Source: a virus
Strand: one strand, 5' to 3'
Virus record (IMG/VR): IMGVR_UViG_3300019927_000044
Location: 3,331 to 67,330 of that record
Length of the DNA stretch: 64,000 nt
In this document: positions 9,624 to 49,403 of the stretch, in pieces
Position numbering within the stretch: position 1 is the first letter of the stretch
Layout: each line of letters begins with the position of its first letter
The notes under the pieces: generated by a model
What the model was told of the DNA's origin: nothing
The model's input: only the letters and a program-made list of their open reading frames with translations
Database searches by the model: none
Translations under genes and position numbers: made by a program

Positions 9624-9687
9624 GAGAAATTTGTTCCGTTCGGGCCTGTGACGCAATCGAAAATTTCTCACATGACCACGAACGGAA
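9624..9687. repeat. Two interleaved perfect 9-bp inverted repeats
   Basis: GAGAAATTT 9624-32 / AAATTTCTC 9661-69; TTCCGTTCG 9634-42 / CGAACGGAA 9679-87. Confidence 0.8.
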
Positions 9688-9924
9688 TCAGTCGATAAAT
9701 CTATTCCGCTCGGGCCAAACGTCTTCCAGCCGCTCAAGCCGACGAATGTATTCTTTTGCCGTTAGTTCCTCGTTCAGAAGCATCTCTGAAAGCGTACGCA
9801 TATCGTACACCATTTGTTCGGCCACGACAAGCTCGTCAATTTCCTCCTGAATTTCGGCTACTGTAGCCACACCGTCATGCTCAACCTCACTGATTGGCTT
9901 ATCTGGGACGCGCTCTGACAGCAT
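9688..9924 (-). CDS. Hypothetical protein (78 aa)
   Basis: Acidic coupled ORF. Confidence 0.65.
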   Translation of the reverse strand: MLSERVPDKPISEVEHDGVATVAEIQEEIDELVVAEQMVYDMRTLSEMLLNEELTAKEYIRRLERLEDVWPERNRFID

Positions 9925-14869: not shown

Positions 14870-14899
14870 TCAACAGAGGCTGAAGCCGCATCTCGCAAC
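14870..14899 (-). repeat. Synonymously diverged duplicate of the last 9 codons plus stop of the 14937-15035 gene
   Basis: GTTGCGAGATGCGGCTTCAGCCTCTGTTGA vs GTTGCGAGATGCGGCTTTAGCTTGTGCTAA; both encode VARCGFSLC*. Confidence 0.9.
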
Positions 14900-14936
14900 C
14901 TTTGAGAGTGTGTAACACTCTCATTCGGTAGCAGCT

Positions 14937-15035
14937 TTAGCACAAGCTAAAGCCGCATCTCGCAACGCACCGCTCACAGCCTTCGATGAACGCAATATCG
15001 CTACCACAGTCAGGGCATTTATCGAGGTGTCCCAT
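14937..15035 (-). CDS. 32-aa CPxCG zinc-ribbon microprotein
   Basis: MGHLDKCPDCGSDIAFIEGCERCVARCGFSLC; GTCAGTACG motif 11 nt upstream. Confidence 0.7.
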   Translation of the reverse strand: MGHLDKCPDCGSDIAFIEGCERCVARCGFSLC

Positions 15036-15093
15036 GTGTATTATTCCGTACTGACGCGTTTATTTTGATAAACGCTTCCGTGATTGAATGTTT

Positions 15094-17064
15094 TCATTCT
15101 GAACTGACAGATACTTCGTCACTATTCACAACGATGTACGAATCGCCATTTTCTTCATCGAAGAATTGCATTACCTCTTCGTCGGTCAGCTTGGCAATCG
15201 CGTTCTCAACGATATCAGCGACCTGCCCCTCACTCTTGTCAGCCCACATATGATGGGACGGGTCCATGATAGACCCATTCTTATCATCACTACGCCGCTC
15301 ACGTTCAGCACGCACGTACTGTAGTCCCTCGTCGTTGGTGTAGTACTCGACGGGACTGATGCCCAGCATGTGCTGTGTGTCCAGACTCTGCACGTCGTCT
15401 GGCGTCACACGTTTGTCGTCAATCGTATTCTCAAGGTGCTGTGCGACTTCTGCATCGACTTCTCGCCATTCTACGTCCCCTTCATCGTCATCATCACTGA
15501 ACGCGCTCAGACCCTCGTCAGCGTCGTCTGTGTCGTCGTTAGTATCTGGCTCTGTTGCACGAGATGGTGCAAGCGACTCGGCTGCATTTTCAGTTTCGCG
15601 TACTTCCGTCGTCGCAGATAGCTCGGCCTCAAATTCGTTAACTGTCTCAGCGATGTGCTGGTCACGAATCGGGTCGGTTACAGGTTCGAACAGTTCTGGG
15701 TACACATCGAGATTCGGGTGACCGAACGTGGACCCACCCAAAAATTCATACATGTGTGCCCCATTCGGCCCGTCACCCTCATGTTTGACGATTAGATACT
15801 CGTCTTCCATTTCGTCCAGCACACCTTTGTCACGACTGTTCGACAGTTGGTCTTTTGACAGCGATGGGATATCTGCATAATCGTCAATATACTCCGCGAT
15901 ATCCATGCGTGTCGCCTGTAGCCCACCGTTCGGACCATGCCCACCGACACCATTGTGCTCGTCTGTCAGTGCGTCGATAACTGCAAGTCGCTGTTCATCC
16001 ATACCGTGCGTGAGATTCAGCAGTAGATGGCGGTAGGAAAGGACATTGCCGATGTCTTGCGGTTCAGCAACAAGATATTCCGTCCCACCGACGTTCATCG
16101 TCTCACGAGAGTGATAGTTCATCCGCGTCCACGACCGAATGTGGTTCCCGACCGCCTTGGCAGCCCGCTTACTGTCAGTTTTTCCCCAGTTGAATATCGG
16201 CCCCATGACTTCGAATGTGTCCCAGCCATAACTTTCGATATCTGGGTGCGTGGACGTGGGCCAGTCGATATCTTCACTGTGTGGGATAATGACGGGACGG
16301 GCGTAGGACTTTGTAACGCCGTCGACAGTACTCTCAAGCGGGCGTGGGATATTAGCAATGTGGTCCTGTACAGCCCGCGTCCCTTCATCGAAGTTGAAGT
16401 TGTATGTATGCTCACGGTCAGTAACCTCGACCTCGCGGTGGTCGAACATGGTCTTCCCGACCGCACGGTTAATGTCTTCGTCGGCCTCAACGCGAATGAC
16501 CATCTGCCGCGTTTCCAGTTCTTTCGGAATGTCGGCATTATTCTCGTCAGCGAACAGGAAGACGGTCGGCATTGCCTGTTTCTCAATTACGTCTTCCTCT
16601 CGTCCGCCATCACCGTCGTCAACATTCCGACTATGCTGGAACCCGACACCATTTTCGTCGGCGTCGTCACCCGCTGAAGACTTTACCATTTCTAACATTT
16701 TACCCTGCATCTGCTGGAACTCTGCGAACGCGCCGATATACTTCTTGTTCCAGCGGTCTGAGTCGACCAGCCCCATGTCAGACGTGCTACCAGTCCGCAG
16801 CAGCCAGTCATTGACCCAAATTTTGTCCTGCGTCTGCTTAAGTTTCGTCTTCCCCTCACCGCTTTTTCCACGGATAATCAGTTGCAGATACTCGTCTGGG
16901 TCGATAGAAAGGCCAGATGCGTAGCCCGCAGCAGTCGCAAGGAATTCGGCCTCATTACCGACCATTTCCGACCGAATCACGTCGACAATATTCTCCGCGA
17001 TATTATCTGCCACTTCGTAATTCGGGGCTGTCTTATCGGATACGTCTATTTCAAATTCACTCAT
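15094..17064 (-). CDS. P-loop ATPase, probable replicative helicase
   Basis: Walker A GKSGEGKT, AFAEFQQ Walker B-like, ELETR putative Arg finger, acidic C-terminal domains. Confidence 0.6.
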   Translation of the reverse strand: MSEFEIDVSDKTAPNYEVADNIAENIVDVIRSEMVGNEAEFLATAAGYASGLSIDPDEYLQLIIRGKSGEGKTKLKQTQDKIWVNDWLLRTGSTSDMGLVDSDRWNKKYIGAFAEFQQMQGKMLEMVKSSAGDDADENGVGFQHSRNVDDGDGGREEDVIEKQAMPTVFLFADENNADIPKELETRQMVIRVEADEDINRAVGKTMFDHREVEVTDREHTYNFNFDEGTRAVQDHIANIPRPLESTVDGVTKSYARPVIIPHSEDIDWPTSTHPDIESYGWDTFEVMGPIFNWGKTDSKRAAKAVGNHIRSWTRMNYHSRETMNVGGTEYLVAEPQDIGNVLSYRHLLLNLTHGMDEQRLAVIDALTDEHNGVGGHGPNGGLQATRMDIAEYIDDYADIPSLSKDQLSNSRDKGVLDEMEDEYLIVKHEGDGPNGAHMYEFLGGSTFGHPNLDVYPELFEPVTDPIRDQHIAETVNEFEAELSATTEVRETENAAESLAPSRATEPDTNDDTDDADEGLSAFSDDDDEGDVEWREVDAEVAQHLENTIDDKRVTPDDVQSLDTQHMLGISPVEYYTNDEGLQYVRAERERRSDDKNGSIMDPSHHMWADKSEGQVADIVENAIAKLTDEEVMQFFDEENGDSYIVVNSDEVSVSSE

Positions 17065-33027: not shown

Positions 33028-33299
33028 ACTCCGTTGCGGGCCAGAAATCAGATTAGGAGGCTTTTCACAGAAAAGTTATACTTTTTCTGAAAATCGCCAG
33101 AAATTAGATTAGGAGGGTTGTGGGCTTCATGTGCGTGTACGTTCTGCACATGATAACTGCTGGTAATATTATTGTCGTGCATATAACTGTCACGCATATC
33201 GAAAGGTTTAGAGCGAATAGCTCATGCACCATTCGCTCTATCGCGTGAGGTCGATAGACCGAAGGGTTTATACCATTGCACCTCATGTCTCTAATCGCA

Positions 33300-33542: not shown

Positions 33543-33606
33543 GCGGGCAGACTTTTTTATTTGGCTGGCGATATGCGTGGCAGTAATGTCGAAAGGTTTA
33601 ATATAC

Positions 33607-33745
33607 CCTACCTCATTTGTTGAGGTACGCGACGGTAAGCGTGGTTTCCCTACGCCTTACCCGATTTGTAAGCCCTGTATCGGAATTGAAAGATTCCGTA
33701 CGTGGGGACGACTGATTTTCAATCAGTAGCCCCCAAACCAAAGGA
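33607..33745 (+). ncRNA. Structured leader or small RNA upstream of the glycosylase gene
   Basis: Five consecutive hairpins between TATA and ATG; two have G-U pairs on the + strand. Confidence 0.5.
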
Positions 33746-33755
33746 CAACACTACA

Positions 33756-34424
33756 ATGTCAGACATTCAATCCGTACGTGAATGGATAGTTGACCACAAC
33801 GAAGATTATGCTCAAGTGCGTAGCCGTTTGGATGCATGTCGGAATGTCATCCTTCATGGTCGTTTGGACGCCGCCAGTGAAATGCTGAGGGCGTCTTACA
33901 TCAATGCGGTCCTTTCCATCAGAACCGCGAAAGACCGTCATGAAAACGCATTTGCGGCGTACTATGCCAGTGATAAAGTGTCACTGAAAGATGCAGCCCT
34001 ACAAACGGTGTATGGTGGGCACAAAAAGAACTGGCTTAACCGTACCCATAATAAGGTAGACTGGGAAATGCTGGCTATTGCAGTCCGCCAGCATATTAAA
34101 AATGGTCGCATCAAGAAGCTACTTGAAACCGTCGTGGATAATATTGTCGGTGTGTCATATCGCAAAGGTTCATTTATGCTGGCAATGGTCGGCATGCATG
34201 AATACATGTGTATCGATAGCAATGTCGGAAACTTTGCAGATATTGACACCGATGGGGACTATTACAGCGCGACGGCATACCTATCTGATTGTAAGGCCAT
34301 ATATGACGAAATAAATGCTCAGTGGCTTCCGCCGTTTATTGTCCAGTGGGCAATATATGACGTGGAGCGCGGCGAACATGCCCGTCATATGCCGTTTTAT
34401 AATCAGGTGTTAGGTGGCAAATGA
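33756..34424 (+). CDS. HhH-GPD DNA glycosylase/lyase-like protein (Ogg2-like)
   Basis: NIVGVSYRKGSFMLAMVG...MCIDSNV...QWAIY parallels the Ogg2 IKGIGYKEASHFLRNVG...IIDRH pattern. Confidence 0.65.
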   Translation: MSDIQSVREWIVDHNEDYAQVRSRLDACRNVILHGRLDAASEMLRASYINAVLSIRTAKDRHENAFAAYYASDKVSLKDAALQTVYGGHKKNWLNRTHNKVDWEMLAIAVRQHIKNGRIKKLLETVVDNIVGVSYRKGSFMLAMVGMHEYMCIDSNVGNFADIDTDGDYYSATAYLSDCKAIYDEINAQWLPPFIVQWAIYDVERGEHARHMPFYNQVLGGK

Positions 34425-34588
34425 AGCCAGTATCGGCACTTAAAAAAGACGGTAATATTGTTGCACTATTTGAAGAGCGAAAAGACGCCTATCAGCTACG
34501 TGAGGAGAAACAAGAATTTGAAGAGTGCCACTTTACAGTAGAAAAACATATCCTCTATCGGGATATCGAAGATAGAGAACAGCTGTAG
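34421..34588 (+). CDS. Small hypothetical protein (55 aa)
   Basis: Manual translation; ATGA overlap. Confidence 0.55.
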   Translation: MKPVSALKKDGNIVALFEERKDAYQLREEKQEFEECHFTVEKHILYRDIEDREQL

Positions 34589-34670
34589 GGTGGTTTTTTT
34601 TTGGTCGGTGGATATGCGTGACAGTAATATCGCTGGATTTATATACATGGCAGTGTATGAACTAAGTGTA

Positions 34671-34973
34671 ATGTCCGAACTTGATGTTGCTGTCGGCGCG
34701 GCAGTTGAATCGGCTCAAAAAGCATACGACAGCGGTGACAAAAACCCCTTCGACCACGGTTTTGCCCATCTTGAGGTAGATGGTCGCACAAGCCTCGCAA
34801 AGGCGCTACAAGAACACCCAGCGGTAAACGCGTCCGATTCATCATACGTTACTGTTGATGGACTCTCACGGTATCTCACGCCCCAGCAGGCGGGCTATAG
34901 AGCGTTCATCGAGACGTTAGAAGACTACGGCGTTGATGTGGGTCATGTTTCGCGGCATGGCCGTCTTGACTGA
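34671..34973 (+). CDS. Hypothetical protein (100 aa) ending RLD
   Basis: DHGFAHL...YRAFIETLEDYGV...RLD resembles a recurrent phage hypothetical family. Confidence 0.65.
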   Translation: MSELDVAVGAAVESAQKAYDSGDKNPFDHGFAHLEVDGRTSLAKALQEHPAVNASDSSYVTVDGLSRYLTPQQAGYRAFIETLEDYGVDVGHVSRHGRLD

Positions 34974-35058
34974 CAATTGAGGTTTTTTTTGGTCGGTGGA
35001 TATGCGTGATAGTAATATCGACAGACTTAATACATCTCATTCTAAAGTACTAATCGCA

Positions 35059-35232
35059 ATGTCCAATGCACGAAAAGCTCAGATATGGTACGATGTTAGA
35101 ACCGATGAAAGGGAACATACCGATATTGTTCAAGTGGATGATATAGAGAAAAGTGGTGATATTATAAAAATCTGGCTTGAAGGTAGTGAAGAGCCAGATT
35201 ACTATGTAAATGGTGTCCATTTCTTAGAGTAG
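35059..35232 (+). CDS. Small hypothetical protein (57 aa)
   Basis: Follows a promoter module. Confidence 0.6.
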   Translation: MSNARKAQIWYDVRTDEREHTDIVQVDDIEKSGDIIKIWLEGSEEPDYYVNGVHFLE

Positions 35233-35311
35233 GGCAGCTTTTTTTTAGTCGGTGGATATGAGTGACGGTAATATCGACAGACTTAATACACACCATTTCA
35301 TTTACTGATGT

Positions 35312-35512
35312 ATGCTCTTTGGCCGATGTCCGCGATGTGGTGATGTGGCGGAATTGTTCCACGCAAATGCTGTAAAGTGTCTGTGTAAGCATTGTATTCG
35401 TACGACTGAGAGAAATTCACGTTTACAAAATCATGGCCGTCCAGAGTTACCTCATGATAAGAATGATGTACAATTAGTGTATCAAGTAGATAGAGTATAC
35501 TCACAATTGTAG
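35312..35512 (+). CDS. Small Zn-finger protein (66 aa)
   Basis: CPRCG...CKHC after a promoter module. Confidence 0.6.
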   Translation: MLFGRCPRCGDVAELFHANAVKCLCKHCIRTTERNSRLQNHGRPELPHDKNDVQLVYQVDRVYSQL

Positions 35513-35519
35513 AGTGACA

Positions 35520-36330
35520 TTTTTTTTTGGTCGGTGGATATGCGTGACAGTAATATCTTTTCTAAGACGCTGTATGGCTTTCTCAGCAGTTTTTGACGTA
35601 TGAGGGTTCCAACTACGTGCCCCACAAACAAACCGCCCTAACACGTACTGACAGACTTCTAAGCTGGTTCTTACGGTGGTAATGAGAGAGAATAGGTAGG
35701 TTGTGGGTTCTGGCTGGGAGAGTGTTGTAAGGAATGCATGGGAGTTATTTCTGTATGTATGGGCGTATTTACTGGTAGATATGGGCATATTTAGTGATTG
35801 AATGGGTGTAATTGCGGGAAGATATGGGGGTGGGTACTTGTGCGGCGACGAAAATAACCTGTAGTTATACCCTAATAGCCCACAGACGGCCATGCCTTAC
35901 ACGCGTACGTAACGCAAAACGGCCAGAAATCAGATTAGCGGGTGTGTGCTGGCTTACACGGGCGTGAGAAGCGGATAACTGACGGTAATGAAAAGGTGGG
36001 GGACATATGCAGCTAAGAAATGATGAAATAGTACTTCACAAATATGCGATGAAATAGTACTTCACACCTTTACCTAATACATCCTAATATGACCTTGTAC
36101 ATTTCATGTCAGATATGTGGACTGGCAAGTATTGCCGCCAAACCACTCTCAATCAGGTAGCCGCAATCTATCAGTCAGACAGAATTAAGGACAGTCGACA
36201 GTGTATAAGGGTGTATAATGCATGTATAAGGTTTTACGCGTGTACAATCTACCTTTACAGCTATAGTAGTTTCACGTCTATAACAGTGAAACAAAGTCGA
36301 TAACTCAAAGACATATTTGCCAGTACAAGA
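35520..36330. other. ORF-poor region with iteron-like repeats (origin or genome-end candidate)
   Basis: G-rich + strand at 35670-35870; 19-bp repeat at 36022-40 and 36048-66; TGTATAA three times at 10-11 bp spacing, 36201-29. Confidence 0.45.
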
Positions 36331-40776: not shown

Positions 40777-42656
40777 TGTACGACGGTATGCCCGAGGAAC
40801 TTCGTGAACTACTCCCTCACGACATTCGTCTTTATATGCGAAATTTGTGGGTTCATCCCAACGACCCAACACGAAGTTACGATTTTTATGATGACGTTGG
40901 TCCAGCAGAAGATGAAGACGATGAAGAAGGGCAGTTTCTTCACTATCTTGCTGACGAAGATGGACCACTTGTTCCGAAAAATTGGGGCGATGTAGTTGTT
41001 CTTAATTTCGCTCGTGGGTGTCTAAAAACAACGACGGCGACTGCGGCTGCTGACTGGGGCGTGAGCCAGTTCCCCATGATTGAAGTTGACATTACTGCAC
41101 CGCGACAAGAGCAGTTCGGTGAAGTAATGGACAGATTTAAGGGGGCCGTCAAAAACAGCGGCATGGAAAAGCTACGGACGAAAGACAATATTAGTCACCA
41201 GAAGTTCGAGCGCGTACTTGAAGATGATAGCGGTGATACAATTAACGTCGAAGCTGACGTGAAGGCACGTTCTGCGTGGGGTAGCGGTGACGCACTTCGT
41301 GGACTGCACGGCCACTTCGGTATTATTGACGAGTTTCAGGACGTTGACGAATCGATGTTCTCAACGTTCCTTGAGGCAGTCGACCAGTCTGTTCCGCAAG
41401 TTCCGTATTTCCCGACGATTTTCATTATTGGAACGCCGAAGATGGCCAATTCGTTCTTCCATGACCTTTGGTCAATGTCGGACCAAAAGACGTGGAAACC
41501 GTACGAAGATAAAGATGGTGGCGAATGGGTCGAGCAAGACGAGCCAGACGAATTTATCCCACCCGAGCTTGCTGAACGGCGCGAGGAACTGCACGAAGAA
41601 GCAGATGAGTATATTGAATATTTGCATGGCGTTGCGAGAGAGGCTTACAATGAATGGCAGTCGCGTGATGATGCGCCACGAGATGTAGCTATTCCAGACG
41701 ACCTACAATCGATTGTTGCAGAAATCCAGAGCAAGCGTGAGGCTGCATCGTCTATTGAAGGTTATACTGTTACTGGCTGGCACATCGACCAGTATGCGTC
41801 CCCACTGCACGATGATGCAAAGATAGAATTTAAGCGCCAAAAATATACCGAAAAGAAGTTTAAAAACGAGGTGCTGGCAGAGTTTTACACGCCAGAAAAC
41901 GACCTGCTTGCCGACACGCACGTTAATGATGCATTTATTGACGACGCTGGCTTCACAAACAGACGGCAGTATGATGATAGCACTGTCGTGATGGGCGTTG
42001 ACTGGGGTGGTGGTAGTTCCGAAGATGCGTCAGATACTGTTATTGTCGTTGGTGAGCAAATCGGTGACGATGAGAGTGAGCGAATTGTAGTTCGGGATAT
42101 CGAATTCCTTGACCCAGACCTCAATAAGCAAGACGAATTGGACGAAGTTGAACAGCGCATACGTGACTATGAGGTTGACCGCATTGCGGTGGACGAGGGG
42201 TACGGCGCAAAGCAGCGTGAAGACCTGCAAGAAGGGAATAACATCTGGAACGATGATGGATGGGAGTCTGTATGTGGTATAATTTACGGCAACATCAAAG
42301 ATAAGGAAAAGCCGAAGTTTAGTGATTCAAGCTTTACTAACTCCGCATACTGTACTGTTGCCCGAACACACATGATTGAATCGATGGTCGACTACTTCAA
42401 AGATGGGCGGATTGAGATTCCCGCTGCGGATATGGATAACAACCGTGACGGGATGAAACAACAACTTATTGACCATTTGACTGCCCCGTACACTGATAGG
42501 ACAGAAACCAGTGGTGGGAAAAAGAAACTAAAAGTGATGGCTGACAGAAACGATGACGCGTTTCAGGCCTTCACGTATATGTACATCGCTGCTAAGAAAT
42601 TTGGCAGCACGAGAACGTTGACGAAAATTGGCAGCCATAATCGAACTGGATACTAA
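40776..42656 (+). CDS. terL: Terminase large subunit
   Basis: FARGCLKTT Walker A, GIIDEFQD Walker B, IGTPK, MGVDWG and NDDA nuclease motifs. Confidence 0.92.
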   Translation: MYDGMPEELRELLPHDIRLYMRNLWVHPNDPTRSYDFYDDVGPAEDEDDEEGQFLHYLADEDGPLVPKNWGDVVVLNFARGCLKTTTATAAADWGVSQFPMIEVDITAPRQEQFGEVMDRFKGAVKNSGMEKLRTKDNISHQKFERVLEDDSGDTINVEADVKARSAWGSGDALRGLHGHFGIIDEFQDVDESMFSTFLEAVDQSVPQVPYFPTIFIIGTPKMANSFFHDLWSMSDQKTWKPYEDKDGGEWVEQDEPDEFIPPELAERREELHEEADEYIEYLHGVAREAYNEWQSRDDAPRDVAIPDDLQSIVAEIQSKREAASSIEGYTVTGWHIDQYASPLHDDAKIEFKRQKYTEKKFKNEVLAEFYTPENDLLADTHVNDAFIDDAGFTNRRQYDDSTVVMGVDWGGGSSEDASDTVIVVGEQIGDDESERIVVRDIEFLDPDLNKQDELDEVEQRIRDYEVDRIAVDEGYGAKQREDLQEGNNIWNDDGWESVCGIIYGNIKDKEKPKFSDSSFTNSAYCTVARTHMIESMVDYFKDGRIEIPAADMDNNRDGMKQQLIDHLTAPYTDRTETSGGKKKLKVMADRNDDAFQAFTYMYIAAKKFGSTRTLTKIGSHNRTGY

Positions 42657-44332
42657 TGACAGAAGAATTTGATATTGGTGTCAGTGCAGAAACTGACGCT
42701 ACGACATCGTTTGAACTTGGACGTGTAGCAACACATCAGTATTCCGAACGCACTGCGGAGCGGACTGCTGGTGTTGGAACCGAAGAGGGTGACAGTGCCG
42801 ATGAAATTGACCCACGTCGGCTGATGGGCGACCCGACTGTTAATAAAATACGTTGGCTATATCGCACATCGCTGGCACAGACACTTGTCAATAAACCAGT
42901 CGATGATGCATTTAAAAATGGCTACGAAATAGAACACGACGGTAATCGTGACATTCAGTCGCTACTTGATGGTCTTGACTGGGAACAGCACTACAAAGAC
43001 GTGAAGAAAAAGGCACGTCGTGATGGATTTGCACTATCGTTCTTTGTTCTTGAGGATAATAGCGATGGTGTGTGGGAGGACCCAATGAAAGACGACGTGA
43101 CTGTTAGTTCTGTCAAAAAGCTTGAAATAGAGACACTTGACAGTCTTGCAACGTTTAAGGCCAGTCACGACGCTATTCCTGCGGGTGCTGATGCTGACCC
43201 ACTTGAAGGTCTTCCACACGACGACTATGAGATTCGTCCAACTGGTATTGTGATGGACACTGACCCCACATCTGAAACATACAAAGAACCACTTGGTTAT
43301 CTCATTGGTCCGAAAGACTGGATTGAGGAGCATGACCCGTCTGGTGTGAAATTCTATCATCGCAATCGCTTTATCCACCACGTTGAGAACCGTACCGTGG
43401 ATGGCGATATTAGCGATGATAGTCTGGGTCGCTGGGAAGGTGACAGCGTACTTGTCTCTTCGTATCATCTTCTTGACGGTATGAAGAAAGGTAACTGGGC
43501 GACAATGCAGACAGTATTCCGTTATGCTGCAAAGCTATACCACGTTGCCTTACCCGAAGACGCTGACGAAGACGACTGGGAGCAGGCCAATGAGAACATG
43601 CAGAATCTCAATGCCAAGTCAGAGCTTGTTACGCCAGCTGGCTACGAAATTGATGATTTCCAGACTGATGGTCAACTGGACCCAGAGCCGTACTTTGACG
43701 TGCTATTCGAGCAAGTCTGTGCGTCTAATGAGATGACCAAATCTGTTTTGTTTGGCACACAAAGCGGTACTGTCAGTGGGTCTGAAACTGATATCAAAAA
43801 TTACTTTAACAAAGTCGAGCGGATGCGTCATGGGTCTATTGACAGAGACATGCATAAATTTGTTAACAAGTCGATACAACTTGTTGACAATCGTGCAAGT
43901 AGCGATTACGACCTTGATTTTACAATTGAGTGGGGACCACTATTTCAGCTATCGCAGCTTGATAGGGCAGAGCAGCTATCCCGAACGATGGGGACGCTGG
44001 CCTCGGCTATCAATAACTTCATCCTGACGCCAGAAGAAGCCCGTGAGATTCTGAAAGAGGAGTGGGCTGACGTTGACATTGACTGGTCTGATAGTTTCAG
44101 TGAAGAAGAAACTGACTTCCTCAAAACGCTGAACATTGCCCAGCTTGGTACTGAGGCTGCATTACCAGACGGTGAGGGTGGCAGCGACGGAAATCCCGCT
44201 GTCGGGCAGAATGGTGGGGGCAACCCTCGCGGAAATACTATATCATCCGAACAACCAACGACTGATAACTTAAGCGATGAAGACAAAAGTGATATAGCAC
44301 GGAGAGTTGTGGAGATGATAGAAAATGAGTGA
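42656..44332 (+). CDS. Portal protein (DUF1073-like)
   Basis: Follows TerL; LVNKPVDDAFKNG, LFGTQSG...SETDIKNYF motifs. Confidence 0.88.
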   Translation: MTEEFDIGVSAETDATTSFELGRVATHQYSERTAERTAGVGTEEGDSADEIDPRRLMGDPTVNKIRWLYRTSLAQTLVNKPVDDAFKNGYEIEHDGNRDIQSLLDGLDWEQHYKDVKKKARRDGFALSFFVLEDNSDGVWEDPMKDDVTVSSVKKLEIETLDSLATFKASHDAIPAGADADPLEGLPHDDYEIRPTGIVMDTDPTSETYKEPLGYLIGPKDWIEEHDPSGVKFYHRNRFIHHVENRTVDGDISDDSLGRWEGDSVLVSSYHLLDGMKKGNWATMQTVFRYAAKLYHVALPEDADEDDWEQANENMQNLNAKSELVTPAGYEIDDFQTDGQLDPEPYFDVLFEQVCASNEMTKSVLFGTQSGTVSGSETDIKNYFNKVERMRHGSIDRDMHKFVNKSIQLVDNRASSDYDLDFTIEWGPLFQLSQLDRAEQLSRTMGTLASAINNFILTPEEAREILKEEWADVDIDWSDSFSEEETDFLKTLNIAQLGTEAALPDGEGGSDGNPAVGQNGGGNPRGNTISSEQPTTDNLSDEDKSDIARRVVEMIENE

Positions 44333-45092
44333 ATGTCCAAGTTGTGACAAAACTTTTCAAACTGATTCAGGAATGAAATCACACCACACGCAAGTACATA
44401 ATGAAAGTTTATGTATGATAGAAGTGGGCTGTGCAAATTGTAATGAACTATTTTCTGCCCACGAATATAAGATAGAACGTTCAGATAATTTGTTTTGTTC
44501 TCAAGAATGTCAGTCAGAATATAAAAAAGACAATGAATATTTACACCCTCCCACATATGAGGGTAAAGAACATCCACAATTTGATTCTACTAAAATAAAT
44601 TGTTGTTGATGTGATAAAATATATTTACAACATGATTATAAAATAGAACAAAATGAAAACAATTTTTGTTCTGTCGGTTGTCGTGCAGAATGGCAATCTG
44701 AAAACGTTGTAGGAGAATCACACCACCAATGGAGTGGTGGTAAAAATAAATATAACAAAGGTTGGGAAAGAAAAAGAATTAATGCAATAGTCCACTCTGA
44801 TGGAAGATGTAAATCGTGTGGAATATCAGAAAAAGAACATATTAATAAAAATGGTTTTGGTCTTCATGTTCATCATATAATACCATTAAAAGAGTTTGAT
44901 GACCAAAACAGAGCACATCAGTTAGATAATCTTATGCCCTTATGTATTAATTGCCATATGAGAGTAGAAAATTCTGGCGGGATGGAGCAAGGTCAGCAAA
45001 CGGCAAGTGAGCAGCCAGAAAATGACGGACTTTCGCGCCGAGACATTGACAGAATTGCAGAACGAACGGCAGAAATAATTCAAAACGAATGA
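44325..45092 (+). pseudogene. Zn-finger HNH endonuclease interrupted by an in-frame TGA (44607-09), fused to a duplicate portal C-terminus
   Basis: Frame continues after TGA to GRCKSCG...HVHHIIP...NLMPLCINCH, then SEQPENDGLS...EIIQNE*. Confidence 0.85.
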
Positions 45093-45148: not shown

Positions 45149-45472
45149 ATGAGGAGTAACACAATGGGAGAATCATTCACAGTTTCGGAAGGCGACGTTC
45201 CTGATGGTGACGACTTTGTTGCGACAAAAGAAGGGCAGAATACAGAGTTTGTCGCAAAGTCTTTTGTACTTGGTGGAGAATTTGAAATTTATTGGGAACG
45301 TGATACGGATGGTGATGGAAACTATGAAGTGTCGGTGCTGCTTGATACGTTAGGGCAGGGCATTTCAACTGGTAATGATATCCCAGTTGATGAGTTTTTC
45401 CGCTCACGACTTCGATGTAAAAATGTTAGTGGCGATACCGCAGATATTAGTGTTATGGGGGAACGTTTATGA
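45149..45472 (+). CDS. Hypothetical virion-region protein
   Basis: Acidic beta-rich ORF between portal and protease. Confidence 0.65.
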   Translation: MRSNTMGESFTVSEGDVPDGDDFVATKEGQNTEFVAKSFVLGGEFEIYWERDTDGDGNYEVSVLLDTLGQGISTGNDIPVDEFFRSRLRCKNVSGDTADISVMGERL

Positions 45473-46002
45473 GTGGGCTTAATCCAACTGGTCTGGGTAA
45501 TACTGAAAACTTTTCTAACGTAAAAGCTGAATCGGTTAATGCAGAGCAATCATCTCTTAAAAACGTATCATCTGAAATAATTTCAAAAAATTTAAAAACT
45601 GATATTGATGTTAATGAATATGAATTTATTTCTATTTTAATCAAAAATCTTTATTCTGGTAATAATGAAAATATTATATTTCGTATAAATAATAATACAA
45701 ATAAAATATATAATAATATTTTTGAATACGGTTCATCAGTTAAAAATTATTGGGTTGTGGCTTCAAACACGTCTTCTGAAAATCGTTATTCTGGAAAAAT
45801 AGATATATTTTCAGGAGATAATATTAATGGCAATTCTCCTATAACAATTTCTAATCATGGAAATTTAAAAAAAGTTAATAACACTAAAATAAAAAATGGA
45901 CACACAACAAATAATGTTAGTATGAATTCCATTCAAATCAATACAACTGGTACAGAAAACTTATCATCAACAAAATTTGTTGTCATAGGTTATAAATATT
46001 AA
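45469..46002 (+). CDS. Very AT-rich, Asn/Ile/Lys-rich fibre-like protein
   Basis: NFSNVKAESVN resembles NFGNVTADSVN in the 61018 fibre. Confidence 0.65.
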   Translation: MSGLNPTGLGNTENFSNVKAESVNAEQSSLKNVSSEIISKNLKTDIDVNEYEFISILIKNLYSGNNENIIFRINNNTNKIYNNIFEYGSSVKNYWVVASNTSSENRYSGKIDIFSGDNINGNSPITISNHGNLKKVNNTKIKNGHTTNNVSMNSIQINTTGTENLSSTKFVVIGYKY

Positions 46003-48211: not shown

Positions 48212-49324
48212 ATGGCAACGACTTCTTTCCATACTGAAGAAGATTTCACTGAACAGGTTAGTCCCGACGAAGACCTCATGCTTGAGCGTGAGGGTCGTGA
48301 CCGTCGTGGTGTCCGTCGAGAGATGGCCCCACTGAATGTCATGGAGCGTGGGACGCGAAAGATTGAGGAAGGCGATGGGACGTATGTGCAGCACGATTCG
48401 TCCATGCCGACTGGTACCACTGGCGTTGGCGAGGTTCTTGGCAACGTCGACATCGTTCGGTACCTCGGTGACGAAGTGCTGATTCCGCGTATGACGCACT
48501 CCATGGCGCTTGACGCCGAAGACCTTGACCTTGGCAATGCCAATGAAAAGGTCCAGCGAGCGCAGGATACCGTCATGGAGATGTTCGACATTCAGGCGGA
48601 CCTACAGTTCCTCAAAGGCATTACCGATGAGGAAGGTAACGAGGTTCAGCCCGATATCTTCTCGTGGCTTGATAACAACATCCCGAGCGGAAATGTTATC
48701 GACGCGACGAACTACACGTCGGACTATTCGCTGTCGAACGGACAGCCGTCGAACATTATCCAGCGTGTTGCCTACCAGAACACGCAGGGTATCTATGCCG
48801 ACGACGCATGGGACATGGCGCTGTGGAAGCATCCTGTAGAGGCACTGTGGAACACGATTGACGACAACAGCGGCTTCGCGCTTCAGAGTCAGTGGGTTGA
48901 CATGGGCGCTGACGCGGCTGGTGTCGGTAACTCTGTCGTTGGCGATACGGTCAAGATTCCGAATCAGGTTGGTCTTCGCACCGCGCCCGACCAGCCCGAT
49001 AGTCTTCAGTTCGACATCGACTTCCCGACTCGTCAGAACTCCTCGTACGACTCGCCCATTGGTGACATCGAAGGGTTCACGGATGACGACGACGTGATGT
49101 ACCTCATCCCCGACCACGGTGGGGACTTCTTCTCGATGTACGAGCATCCCGAACCCACGCTTATTCAGGAGCCTGTCCGCAAGAACGGCGGGCGTCTTGA
49201 GTACGAGTACTACTGGCGTGCTGGTCAGGCATTCGGCTTCGGTTCCCACAAGACCGACGACGGTGCTGGTGGCGATGTTGCGTACGATGCCATCAAGATT
49301 GAGAACGTCTCTGCGCTATTCTAA
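48212..49324 (+). CDS. Major capsid protein (HK97 fold)
   Basis: 370 aa; position; AQDTVMEMFDIQADLQFLKG backbone-helix pattern. Confidence 0.85.
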   Translation: MATTSFHTEEDFTEQVSPDEDLMLEREGRDRRGVRREMAPLNVMERGTRKIEEGDGTYVQHDSSMPTGTTGVGEVLGNVDIVRYLGDEVLIPRMTHSMALDAEDLDLGNANEKVQRAQDTVMEMFDIQADLQFLKGITDEEGNEVQPDIFSWLDNNIPSGNVIDATNYTSDYSLSNGQPSNIIQRVAYQNTQGIYADDAWDMALWKHPVEALWNTIDDNSGFALQSQWVDMGADAAGVGNSVVGDTVKIPNQVGLRTAPDQPDSLQFDIDFPTRQNSSYDSPIGDIEGFTDDDDVMYLIPDHGGDFFSMYEHPEPTLIQEPVRKNGGRLEYEYYWRAGQAFGFGSHKTDDGAGGDVAYDAIKIENVSALF

Positions 49325-49403
49325 CATGACGGTGGGAACTGATAGCGCAGATGCAGAGCGGACTCATGCTACGCAGAGTCCGAAAGTCTCTGCGCTATTC
49401 TAA
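49307..49403 (+). repeat. 18-bp direct repeat of the MCP 3' end around a 61-nt spacer containing its 10-nt complement
   Basis: GTCTCTGCGCTATTCTAA at 49307-24 and 49386-403; ATAGCGCAGA at 49342-51; GGACTC/GAGTCC hairpin. Confidence 0.92.

Follow-up and report, generated by a model that had tools for sequence, protein, structure and literature searches.

What can place, behind a viral gene of 32 codons, a second and differently spelled version of its last nine codons? The question is raised by a locus in the window, the 64,000-nt stretch of DNA analysed here, which makes up most of a 67.4-kb virus record. The source is an uncultured haloarchaeal myovirus. The proteome encoded in the window is acidic, and a terminase, portal, protease, tail sheath and polB are all encoded. 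No provirus relatives were found in scans of genome contigs.

The duplicated end of a micro-gene

The sequence-only reading had reported two 30-nt copies differing at five silent or stop-preserving positions, with 37 nt between them and no start for the second copy. All of this was borne out. The copies are 25/30 identical and both encode VARCGFSLC*, the differences being TTT/TTC, TTG/CTC (two), TGC/TGT and TAA/TGA. The chance that five random substitutions are all silent is about 3 in 10,000 (~0.03%). The spacer measured 37 nt, with a period of 67 nt, and no in-frame start was found for 14899-14870. The 17-nt identical core of the copies occurs only twice in the window (0.17 expected), and an exact scan of viral contigs with this 17-mer returned six unrelated chance matches only.

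Since 11 or more further contigs have a single-copy orthologue in the same position, the 32-aa micro-gene is real. Its peptide had been likened to the C-terminal ribbon of class II RNRs; the likeness exists but is weak (phrog_23565, E 0.22; tblastn matches under RNR genes, E 0.07-0.5), and no RNR large subunit was matched in the virus. The gene after the micro-gene has its own T/A-rich promoter-like tract. The 656-aa protein encoded beside the micro-gene (window 15094-17064, minus strand) is 58-68% identical to relatives from hypersaline assemblies and Halorubrum phage GNf2; its identity to HATV-2 and HGTV-1 is about 30%. It is conserved in the clade and has a Walker-A-like GKSGEGKT motif, with no Pfam or PHROG match; in the relative P0024 an intein-sized insertion is present. 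An RNA-ligase gene (PF09414) lies immediately upstream of the 656-aa gene in GNf2 (L023), and such genes also occur in the relatives G002 and G003. In L026 (4005-5024) an HNH endonuclease is encoded between the 656-aa gene and the micro-gene, whose end is not duplicated there. Elsewhere in the window, an ORF of about 175 aa at 45470-46000, between the portal region and the protease, is very AT-rich and atypical for the genome. At 33553-35560 on the plus strand, an intergenic repeat of 37-48 nt that opens with a T run is present in five copies or more, which are probably promoter/terminator units.

A search for one-copy alleles of the micro-gene had been proposed, and it was successful. The relatives L035 and L036 (94% nucleotide identity) carry an exact empty allele that lacks precisely 67 nt; not all relatives, therefore, carry both copies. 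The last 24 nt of the gene in the empty allele match copy 2 at 23 of 24 positions, and the DNA 3' of copy 2 is the DNA that follows the stop in L035 and L036. By these two matches, copy 2 is the displaced resident end and copy 1 is the end that came with the insert.

The hairpin in the spacer, described before as 8 bp long, has 9 bp (14923-14915 / 14911-14903), and an 11-bp hairpin over the first stop codon had been missed (arms 14956-14946 / 14941-14931). These hairpins are named P2 and P1, respectively (Table 1). The duplicated region folds at a z of about -5 on both strands. When the differences between the copies are read onto P1, two form a compensatory pair, one changes G-U to G-C and two fall in the loop. 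The 3' arm of P1 can pair with copy 2 as well.

The earlier idea that a 67-bp cassette swapped the gene end, with the copies coming from different lineages, is upheld in both parts by the exact empty allele. It was incomplete with regard to the spacer, which is more than filler and forms the conserved core of a structured element that recurs at unrelated sites. Protein selection, postulated for both copies, holds for copy 1, but this copy is also constrained by hairpin pairing.

Table 1. Positions of the micro-gene, its insert and the other units in the window
Feature	Position	Strand	Evidence
CPxCG zinc-ribbon micro-gene, 32 aa; target gene, last 9 codons and stop now from the insert	14937..15035	-	
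Inserted unit, 67 nt, first GTT through the AAG before the second GTT	14900..14966	-	exact indel against L035/L036; descriptor match
Copy 1, incoming, synonymously re-encoded 3' end VARCGFSLC*	14937..14966	-	sequence comparison and empty allele
Hairpin P1, 11 bp, stop codon in 3' arm	14931..14956	-	fold; compensatory differences from the L018 unit
Conserved linker TACCGAA (family consensus TRYN1-2RA(R))	14924..14930	-	structural descriptor
Hairpin P2, 9 bp, 3-nt loop	14903..14923	-	fold and descriptor
3' junction AAG|GTT (family consensus RAR|GTY)	14897..14902	-	structural descriptor
Copy 2, displaced resident 3' end, untranslated, without in-frame start	14870..14899	-	matches empty allele; same downstream DNA
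GTCAGTACG motif preceding the micro-gene, a putative late promoter	15047..15055	-	same motif in L008, L020, L022, L028
Second window unit, 79 nt, end of probable major capsid gene (48212-49324)	49307..49385	+	exact empty allele L037; displaced end 49386-49403
Third window unit, looser, 70 nt, end of 78-aa ORF 9924-9688	9646..9715	-	displaced end 9645-9618

A family of two-hairpin units

In all, 16 distinct units of 51-79 nt were found in related uncultured haloviruses, the window genome included. The core GTY-[hairpin 1]-TRYN(1-2)RA(R)-[hairpin 2]-RAR|GTY is shared by 13 of the 16; one of these has GG for TR, and the 67-nt micro-gene unit has P1 shifted by 7 nt. Three units (L018, window 9646-9715 and L013) fit the core only loosely. 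A structural descriptor, drawn from some of the units that it finds, gave 15 raw matches in 404 kb and 0-1 in each of 20 shuffles. L061, L064, L068a and L072a were first seen with the descriptor and so were not used in its design, and scans of related records added units in G001, G002, G003, G004 and G009. The descriptor had no match in 355 kb of the four cultured haloviruses HATV-2, HGTV-1, HRTV-5 and HSTV-2; a loose sequence pattern without structure gave background only in five cultured haloviruses.

Closed end to end, all 16 units fold into the same two-stem dumbbell, with z-scores of -3.1 to -6.8 against base shuffles; these scores are inflated by the selection of the units for hairpins. 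When the 13 core units are closed at RAR|GTY, the GU of GUY pairs with the linker RY beside a purine-rich loop. A MAFFT alignment of the unit cores was not structure-consistent. Rfam returned nothing credible, either for three regions at E values up to 10 or for the whole window at the gathering score.

Several repeats were not counted as units. One is a borderline relaxed match, L065 +15683. Another, at window 21479-21423 (minus strand), is a 15-nt repeat of period 56 at the end of a 165-aa ORF, accompanied by a small in-frame ORF; it does not have the family core, and it may represent a ribosome-binding site that is repeated. The third is a 24-nt intergenic direct repeat at window 33040-33119, also of period 56, which flanks a hairpin and resembles the DNA 3' of the micro-gene in L007, L021, L026 and L027. 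In L021 (5071-5172) a repeat with a period of 101 nt ends a 180-aa gene, again without the core.

Units are present on both strands: at the ends of genes, across a gene start, within a gene in frame, between genes and in tandem. At the end of the capsid gene, a call that rests on gene order, the 79-nt window unit contains an ORF of 25 codons that shares its frame with the displaced end. Different units of 62 nt and 65 nt occupy the same capsid site in L043/L047 and L048, and 3/18 complete capsid-gene ends in the relatives have mini-units. The exact empty alleles of the two window units have flanks of 94-96% identity; for the third window unit (9646-9715) an empty allele was not found. GTT GCG of both window copies corresponds to GTA GCC in the empty micro-gene strains, whose allele is thus without the GTY of the family junction. 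GTY is not sufficient for insertion, being present in most empty capsid alleles.

In L018, a 59-nt unit is found in the same micro-gene, 7 nt further on than the window unit. It shares its P2 loop with the unit of L060, the two differ by two compensatory pairs, and their target genes are different. In one genome, the near-identical units L068a and L068b are separated by 8.7 kb. L059p and L059m have shared P1 arms and lie in opposite orientation 110 bp apart, one at the gene end and the other (51 nt) in frame inside the same gene. L072 has a tandem pair, the second of which (L072b) has the same P2 as L068b. The L064 unit is antisense over a gene start and provides a new GGAGG and ATG, and the end that the L061 unit overlaps is not re-encoded. 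The antisense units at L068 10398, L072 7429 and L064 15597 are located on or next to a GACTACTAC motif, a short way upstream of late structural genes. The L064 and L068b units precede the same gene in different viruses.

For the eight units at gene ends in sense orientation, the codon pairs were compared: 34 are identical, 17 synonymous and 3 non-synonymous. The similarity to the displaced end stops at the stop codon, and the displaced ends remain intact. In the three capsid units, L060 and L013, an ATG can be read at or just after the stop, opening a frame that runs into the displaced end. Such a short ORF may keep the coupling to the next gene. Both micro-gene units, of the window and of L018, have no such ATG-bearing ORF.

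A proposed mobile element and its rivals

We think it likely that uncultured haloarchaeal myoviruses of one clade carry a family of non-autonomous mobile elements, 51-79 nt long, and that the 67-nt insert is a member. These elements would move as guided dumbbells with the help of a host enzyme. Presence and absence are precise, the two-hairpin architecture recurs with a conserved purine-rich core, and GTY stands at both ends. The sites are varied and on both strands, near-identical copies occur at separate sites, and gene ends as well as one gene start are re-encoded.

In the mechanism that we propose, the travelling form of the unit would be a circular, single-stranded dumbbell closed at RAR|GTY, which would enter immediately before a GTY. 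Preferred sites would be those able to pair with the 3' arm of P1. This pairing would make the 5' end of the unit look like the target, giving an apparent duplication without a true target-site duplication. Selection would retain only copies with a 5' part that still spells the displaced codons and the stop, so that the insertion would be silent, and where the next gene is coupled it would also retain the short re-initiating ORF. Established units would additionally move between strains by recombination, which may explain why copy 1 is foreign and copy 2 resident. Our best guess for the enzyme is one that is presumably host-derived and acts on single-stranded DNA. Movement at the DNA level is slightly favoured because the units are both sense and antisense to genes.

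The pairing of the P1 3' arm with the target after GTY averages 5.8/8, against 3.8 +/- 1.2 for random, an average biased by the units first found as repeats. Six units found without demanding a repeat have a mean of 5.3/8, and two of the six reach only 4. In the 67-nt unit, the arm pairs 7 nt downstream of GTY, not beside it. No Y1 transposase, reverse transcriptase, IS110 transposase or Cas1 was found in the viral records tested, and tyrosine recombinases gave no PF00589 match over the cut-off in 9 records. As a control, the same search recovered Y1 transposases in Haloferax.

It is conceivable, if doubtful, that the units represent a new minimal class of element. This would be a 50-80-nt dumbbell circle with strand exchange at RAR|GTY in the conserved loop, in which the P1 arm serves as a re-programmable pairing guide. 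Strand exchange would then be the work of either a host enzyme as yet unrecognised or the nucleic acid itself.

Free-standing homing-endonuclease cassettes that replace the C-terminus of a gene are known from fungal mitochondria, in Allomyces atp6 and in Glomus atp6, atp9, cox2 and nad3 (PMC3630166). Like these, the minis enter the 3' end, bring a foreign in-frame end and push the resident end downstream. Such cassettes are themselves present in the same viruses. In L007 (4958-5847), 34 nt separate the same micro-gene from a free-standing LAGLIDADG_2 gene of 239 aa (E 1e-13), behind which stands a displaced end whose start is 5 nt away from the window site, a rare archaeal-virus case of the fungal-type end-replacement cassette; the LAGLIDADG search matched L007 alone. 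In the window, the ends of polB and portal are duplicated around HNH genes. The polB gene (7228-3380, minus strand; 1282 aa, probably with an intein inside) is followed by an HNH gene (3358-2705, minus strand) and a displaced end to 2668, the two ends reading TKQTDIEKFM* and SQQTGIGEFM*. The portal gene (42656-44332, plus strand) has its stop overlapped by an HNH ORF (44325-45092, plus strand) that continues in frame into the displaced portal end.

Each mini could thus be a remnant or an endonuclease-less passenger of such a cassette, with the hairpins arising on or after the loss. We regard this as unlikely. The units have 51-79 nt and no enzyme, with a 37-nt spacer only at the micro-gene, whereas the long endonuclease cassettes are without the two-hairpin core and gave no descriptor match. 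None of the 18 complete capsid-gene ends has an endonuclease. Units are also antisense, intergenic and in tandem, twins lie at different sites, and they are not confined to one cognate site but occupy many unrelated sites on both strands. The enzyme of L007 has no homologue in the virus genome of the window. A homing-endonuclease remnant was our first reading, and it was lowered once structured units turned up at unrelated sites on both strands.

An RNA element is also improbable. In that case a minimal intron, or a circle that cleaves and ligates itself, would be released from the transcript at RAR|GUY and return to DNA through reverse transcription or recombination, and splicing would be optional thanks to the spare gene end. 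The core has an internal loop, rich in purines, that may contain tandem G-A pairs, and its covariation tolerates G-U; the P1 arm has two-state pairing, the displaced ends are intact, and RNA-ligase genes occur in G002, G003 and GNf2. As in hairpin and hammerhead ribozymes, GUC/GUU stands by a helix, the linker ends in GA and GAA/GAG follows the second helix. The loop is loosely like loop A of the hairpin ribozyme, in which G8, A38, G+1 and C25 are invariant in 941 examples (PMC8216279). However, the units have one internal loop only and no loop B, and the equivalent of G8 is A in several of them. The hammerhead (CUGANGA / GAAA / NUH, three stems) differs in its linker, which is URYN(1-2)RA in the units with no CUGANGA, and the units have no stem III pairing; Rfam matched neither ribozyme. 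The bulge-helix-bulge of archaeal introns was not found at a common register on both junctions; the only candidates, in five minis and L007, are inconsistent and flanked by 2 bp, and splicing of the spacer by this route, raised in the sequence-only reading, gained no support. Several units are antisense to the gene that they occupy, and the virus genome of the window has no match to a reverse transcriptase or RNA ligase.

Without any mobility, the gene-end hairpins and duplications would arise from slippage or template switching during local replication, and they would be kept as terminators or RNA-stabilising structures. Single-copy micro-gene alleles do often have a weak hairpin over the stop, and direct repeats allow precise loss through recombination. 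Yet the fixed core recurs at unrelated sites well above chance, twin units with identical P2 lie at unlinked sites, and five changes separate copy 1 from the resident end, against 94% identity in the flanks, which leaves this explanation very unlikely. The spacer is also unlike the DNA adjoining either copy, and a simple tandem duplication was rejected on this ground.

Off-target CRISPR spacer acquisition or a viral mini-array is barely credible: haloarchaeal type I-B repeats and spacers do have lengths like those of the 30-nt repeat and 37-nt spacer at the micro-gene, but the repeats of the units range from a few bases to 30 nt, are target sequence and differ at each site, the spacers all bear the same structured core, and no Cas1 was found in the viral records tested. 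A diversity-generating retroelement was rejected, as the differences are not A-specific on either strand and no reverse transcriptase was found.

Relation to known short elements

Returning to the guided, host-mobilised dumbbell, the nearest counterparts are other short hairpin elements. The yeast mitochondrial GC clusters (GC42) are short, form hairpins and have no enzyme; repeats of 2-3 nt (AG, ACT) flank them, and most are intergenic (PMC4478555); the double-hairpin elements (DHE) of Allomyces are cited in the same paper. Like both, the halovirus units have tens of bases, form hairpins, are polymorphic for presence and absence, have no enzyme of their own and are constrained in structure. 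Unlike GC clusters, they re-encode 4-9 target codons, are not GC-rich and reside in archaeal viruses.

Integrons have attC sites and gene-less cassettes, with the core RYYYAAC/GTTRRRY (PMC5027507). Like attC, the units have a G|TY triplet at either end, a hairpin enclosed by paired core halves, an unpaired spacer and a tandem pair, and their arm pairing is likewise perfect in the circle and imperfect once integrated. They differ in that the unit core is TRY/GTY with a Y-U mismatch, not AAC/GTT, they are much shorter and no integrase is nearby. The strand with GTY at either end is also the one that bears their purine-rich loops, which seems to be the reverse of the attC polarity.

REP/REPIN and IS200/IS605-derived elements are likewise short hairpins with stem mismatches, plausibly moved in trans as single-stranded DNA by Y1 (HUH) enzymes. 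No Y1 gene was found in the viral records tested, and the guide/cleavage tetranucleotide rule of IS608 could not be fitted to the units. REP/REPIN and IS200/IS605-derived elements are not known to re-encode gene ends.

With dispersed related copies, precise empty sites, a conserved structure and no enzyme of their own, the units belong to the broad kind of short non-autonomous hairpin elements. This kind is already known from the yeast GC clusters (PMC4478555), and the family itself is apparently undescribed. No description of it was found in the literature covered, most subscription papers lying outside this coverage, and a 2026 survey of noncoding RNA does not mention halophiles.

For the annotation of halovirus genomes, the family accounts for duplicated gene ends and for short ORFs that are spurious. 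With the defined core, the exact empty alleles and the predicted circular form, the question of what moves gene-end hairpin inserts becomes open to tests using short oligonucleotides and extracts of Haloferax. Should the P1 arm direct targeting, the units would be among the smallest programmable insertion substrates known. For the viruses, an element of less than 80 bases can occupy essential genes, such as those of the capsid and the tail-assembly region, without apparent cost, by re-spelling the displaced codons, the start signal or the coupling ORF.
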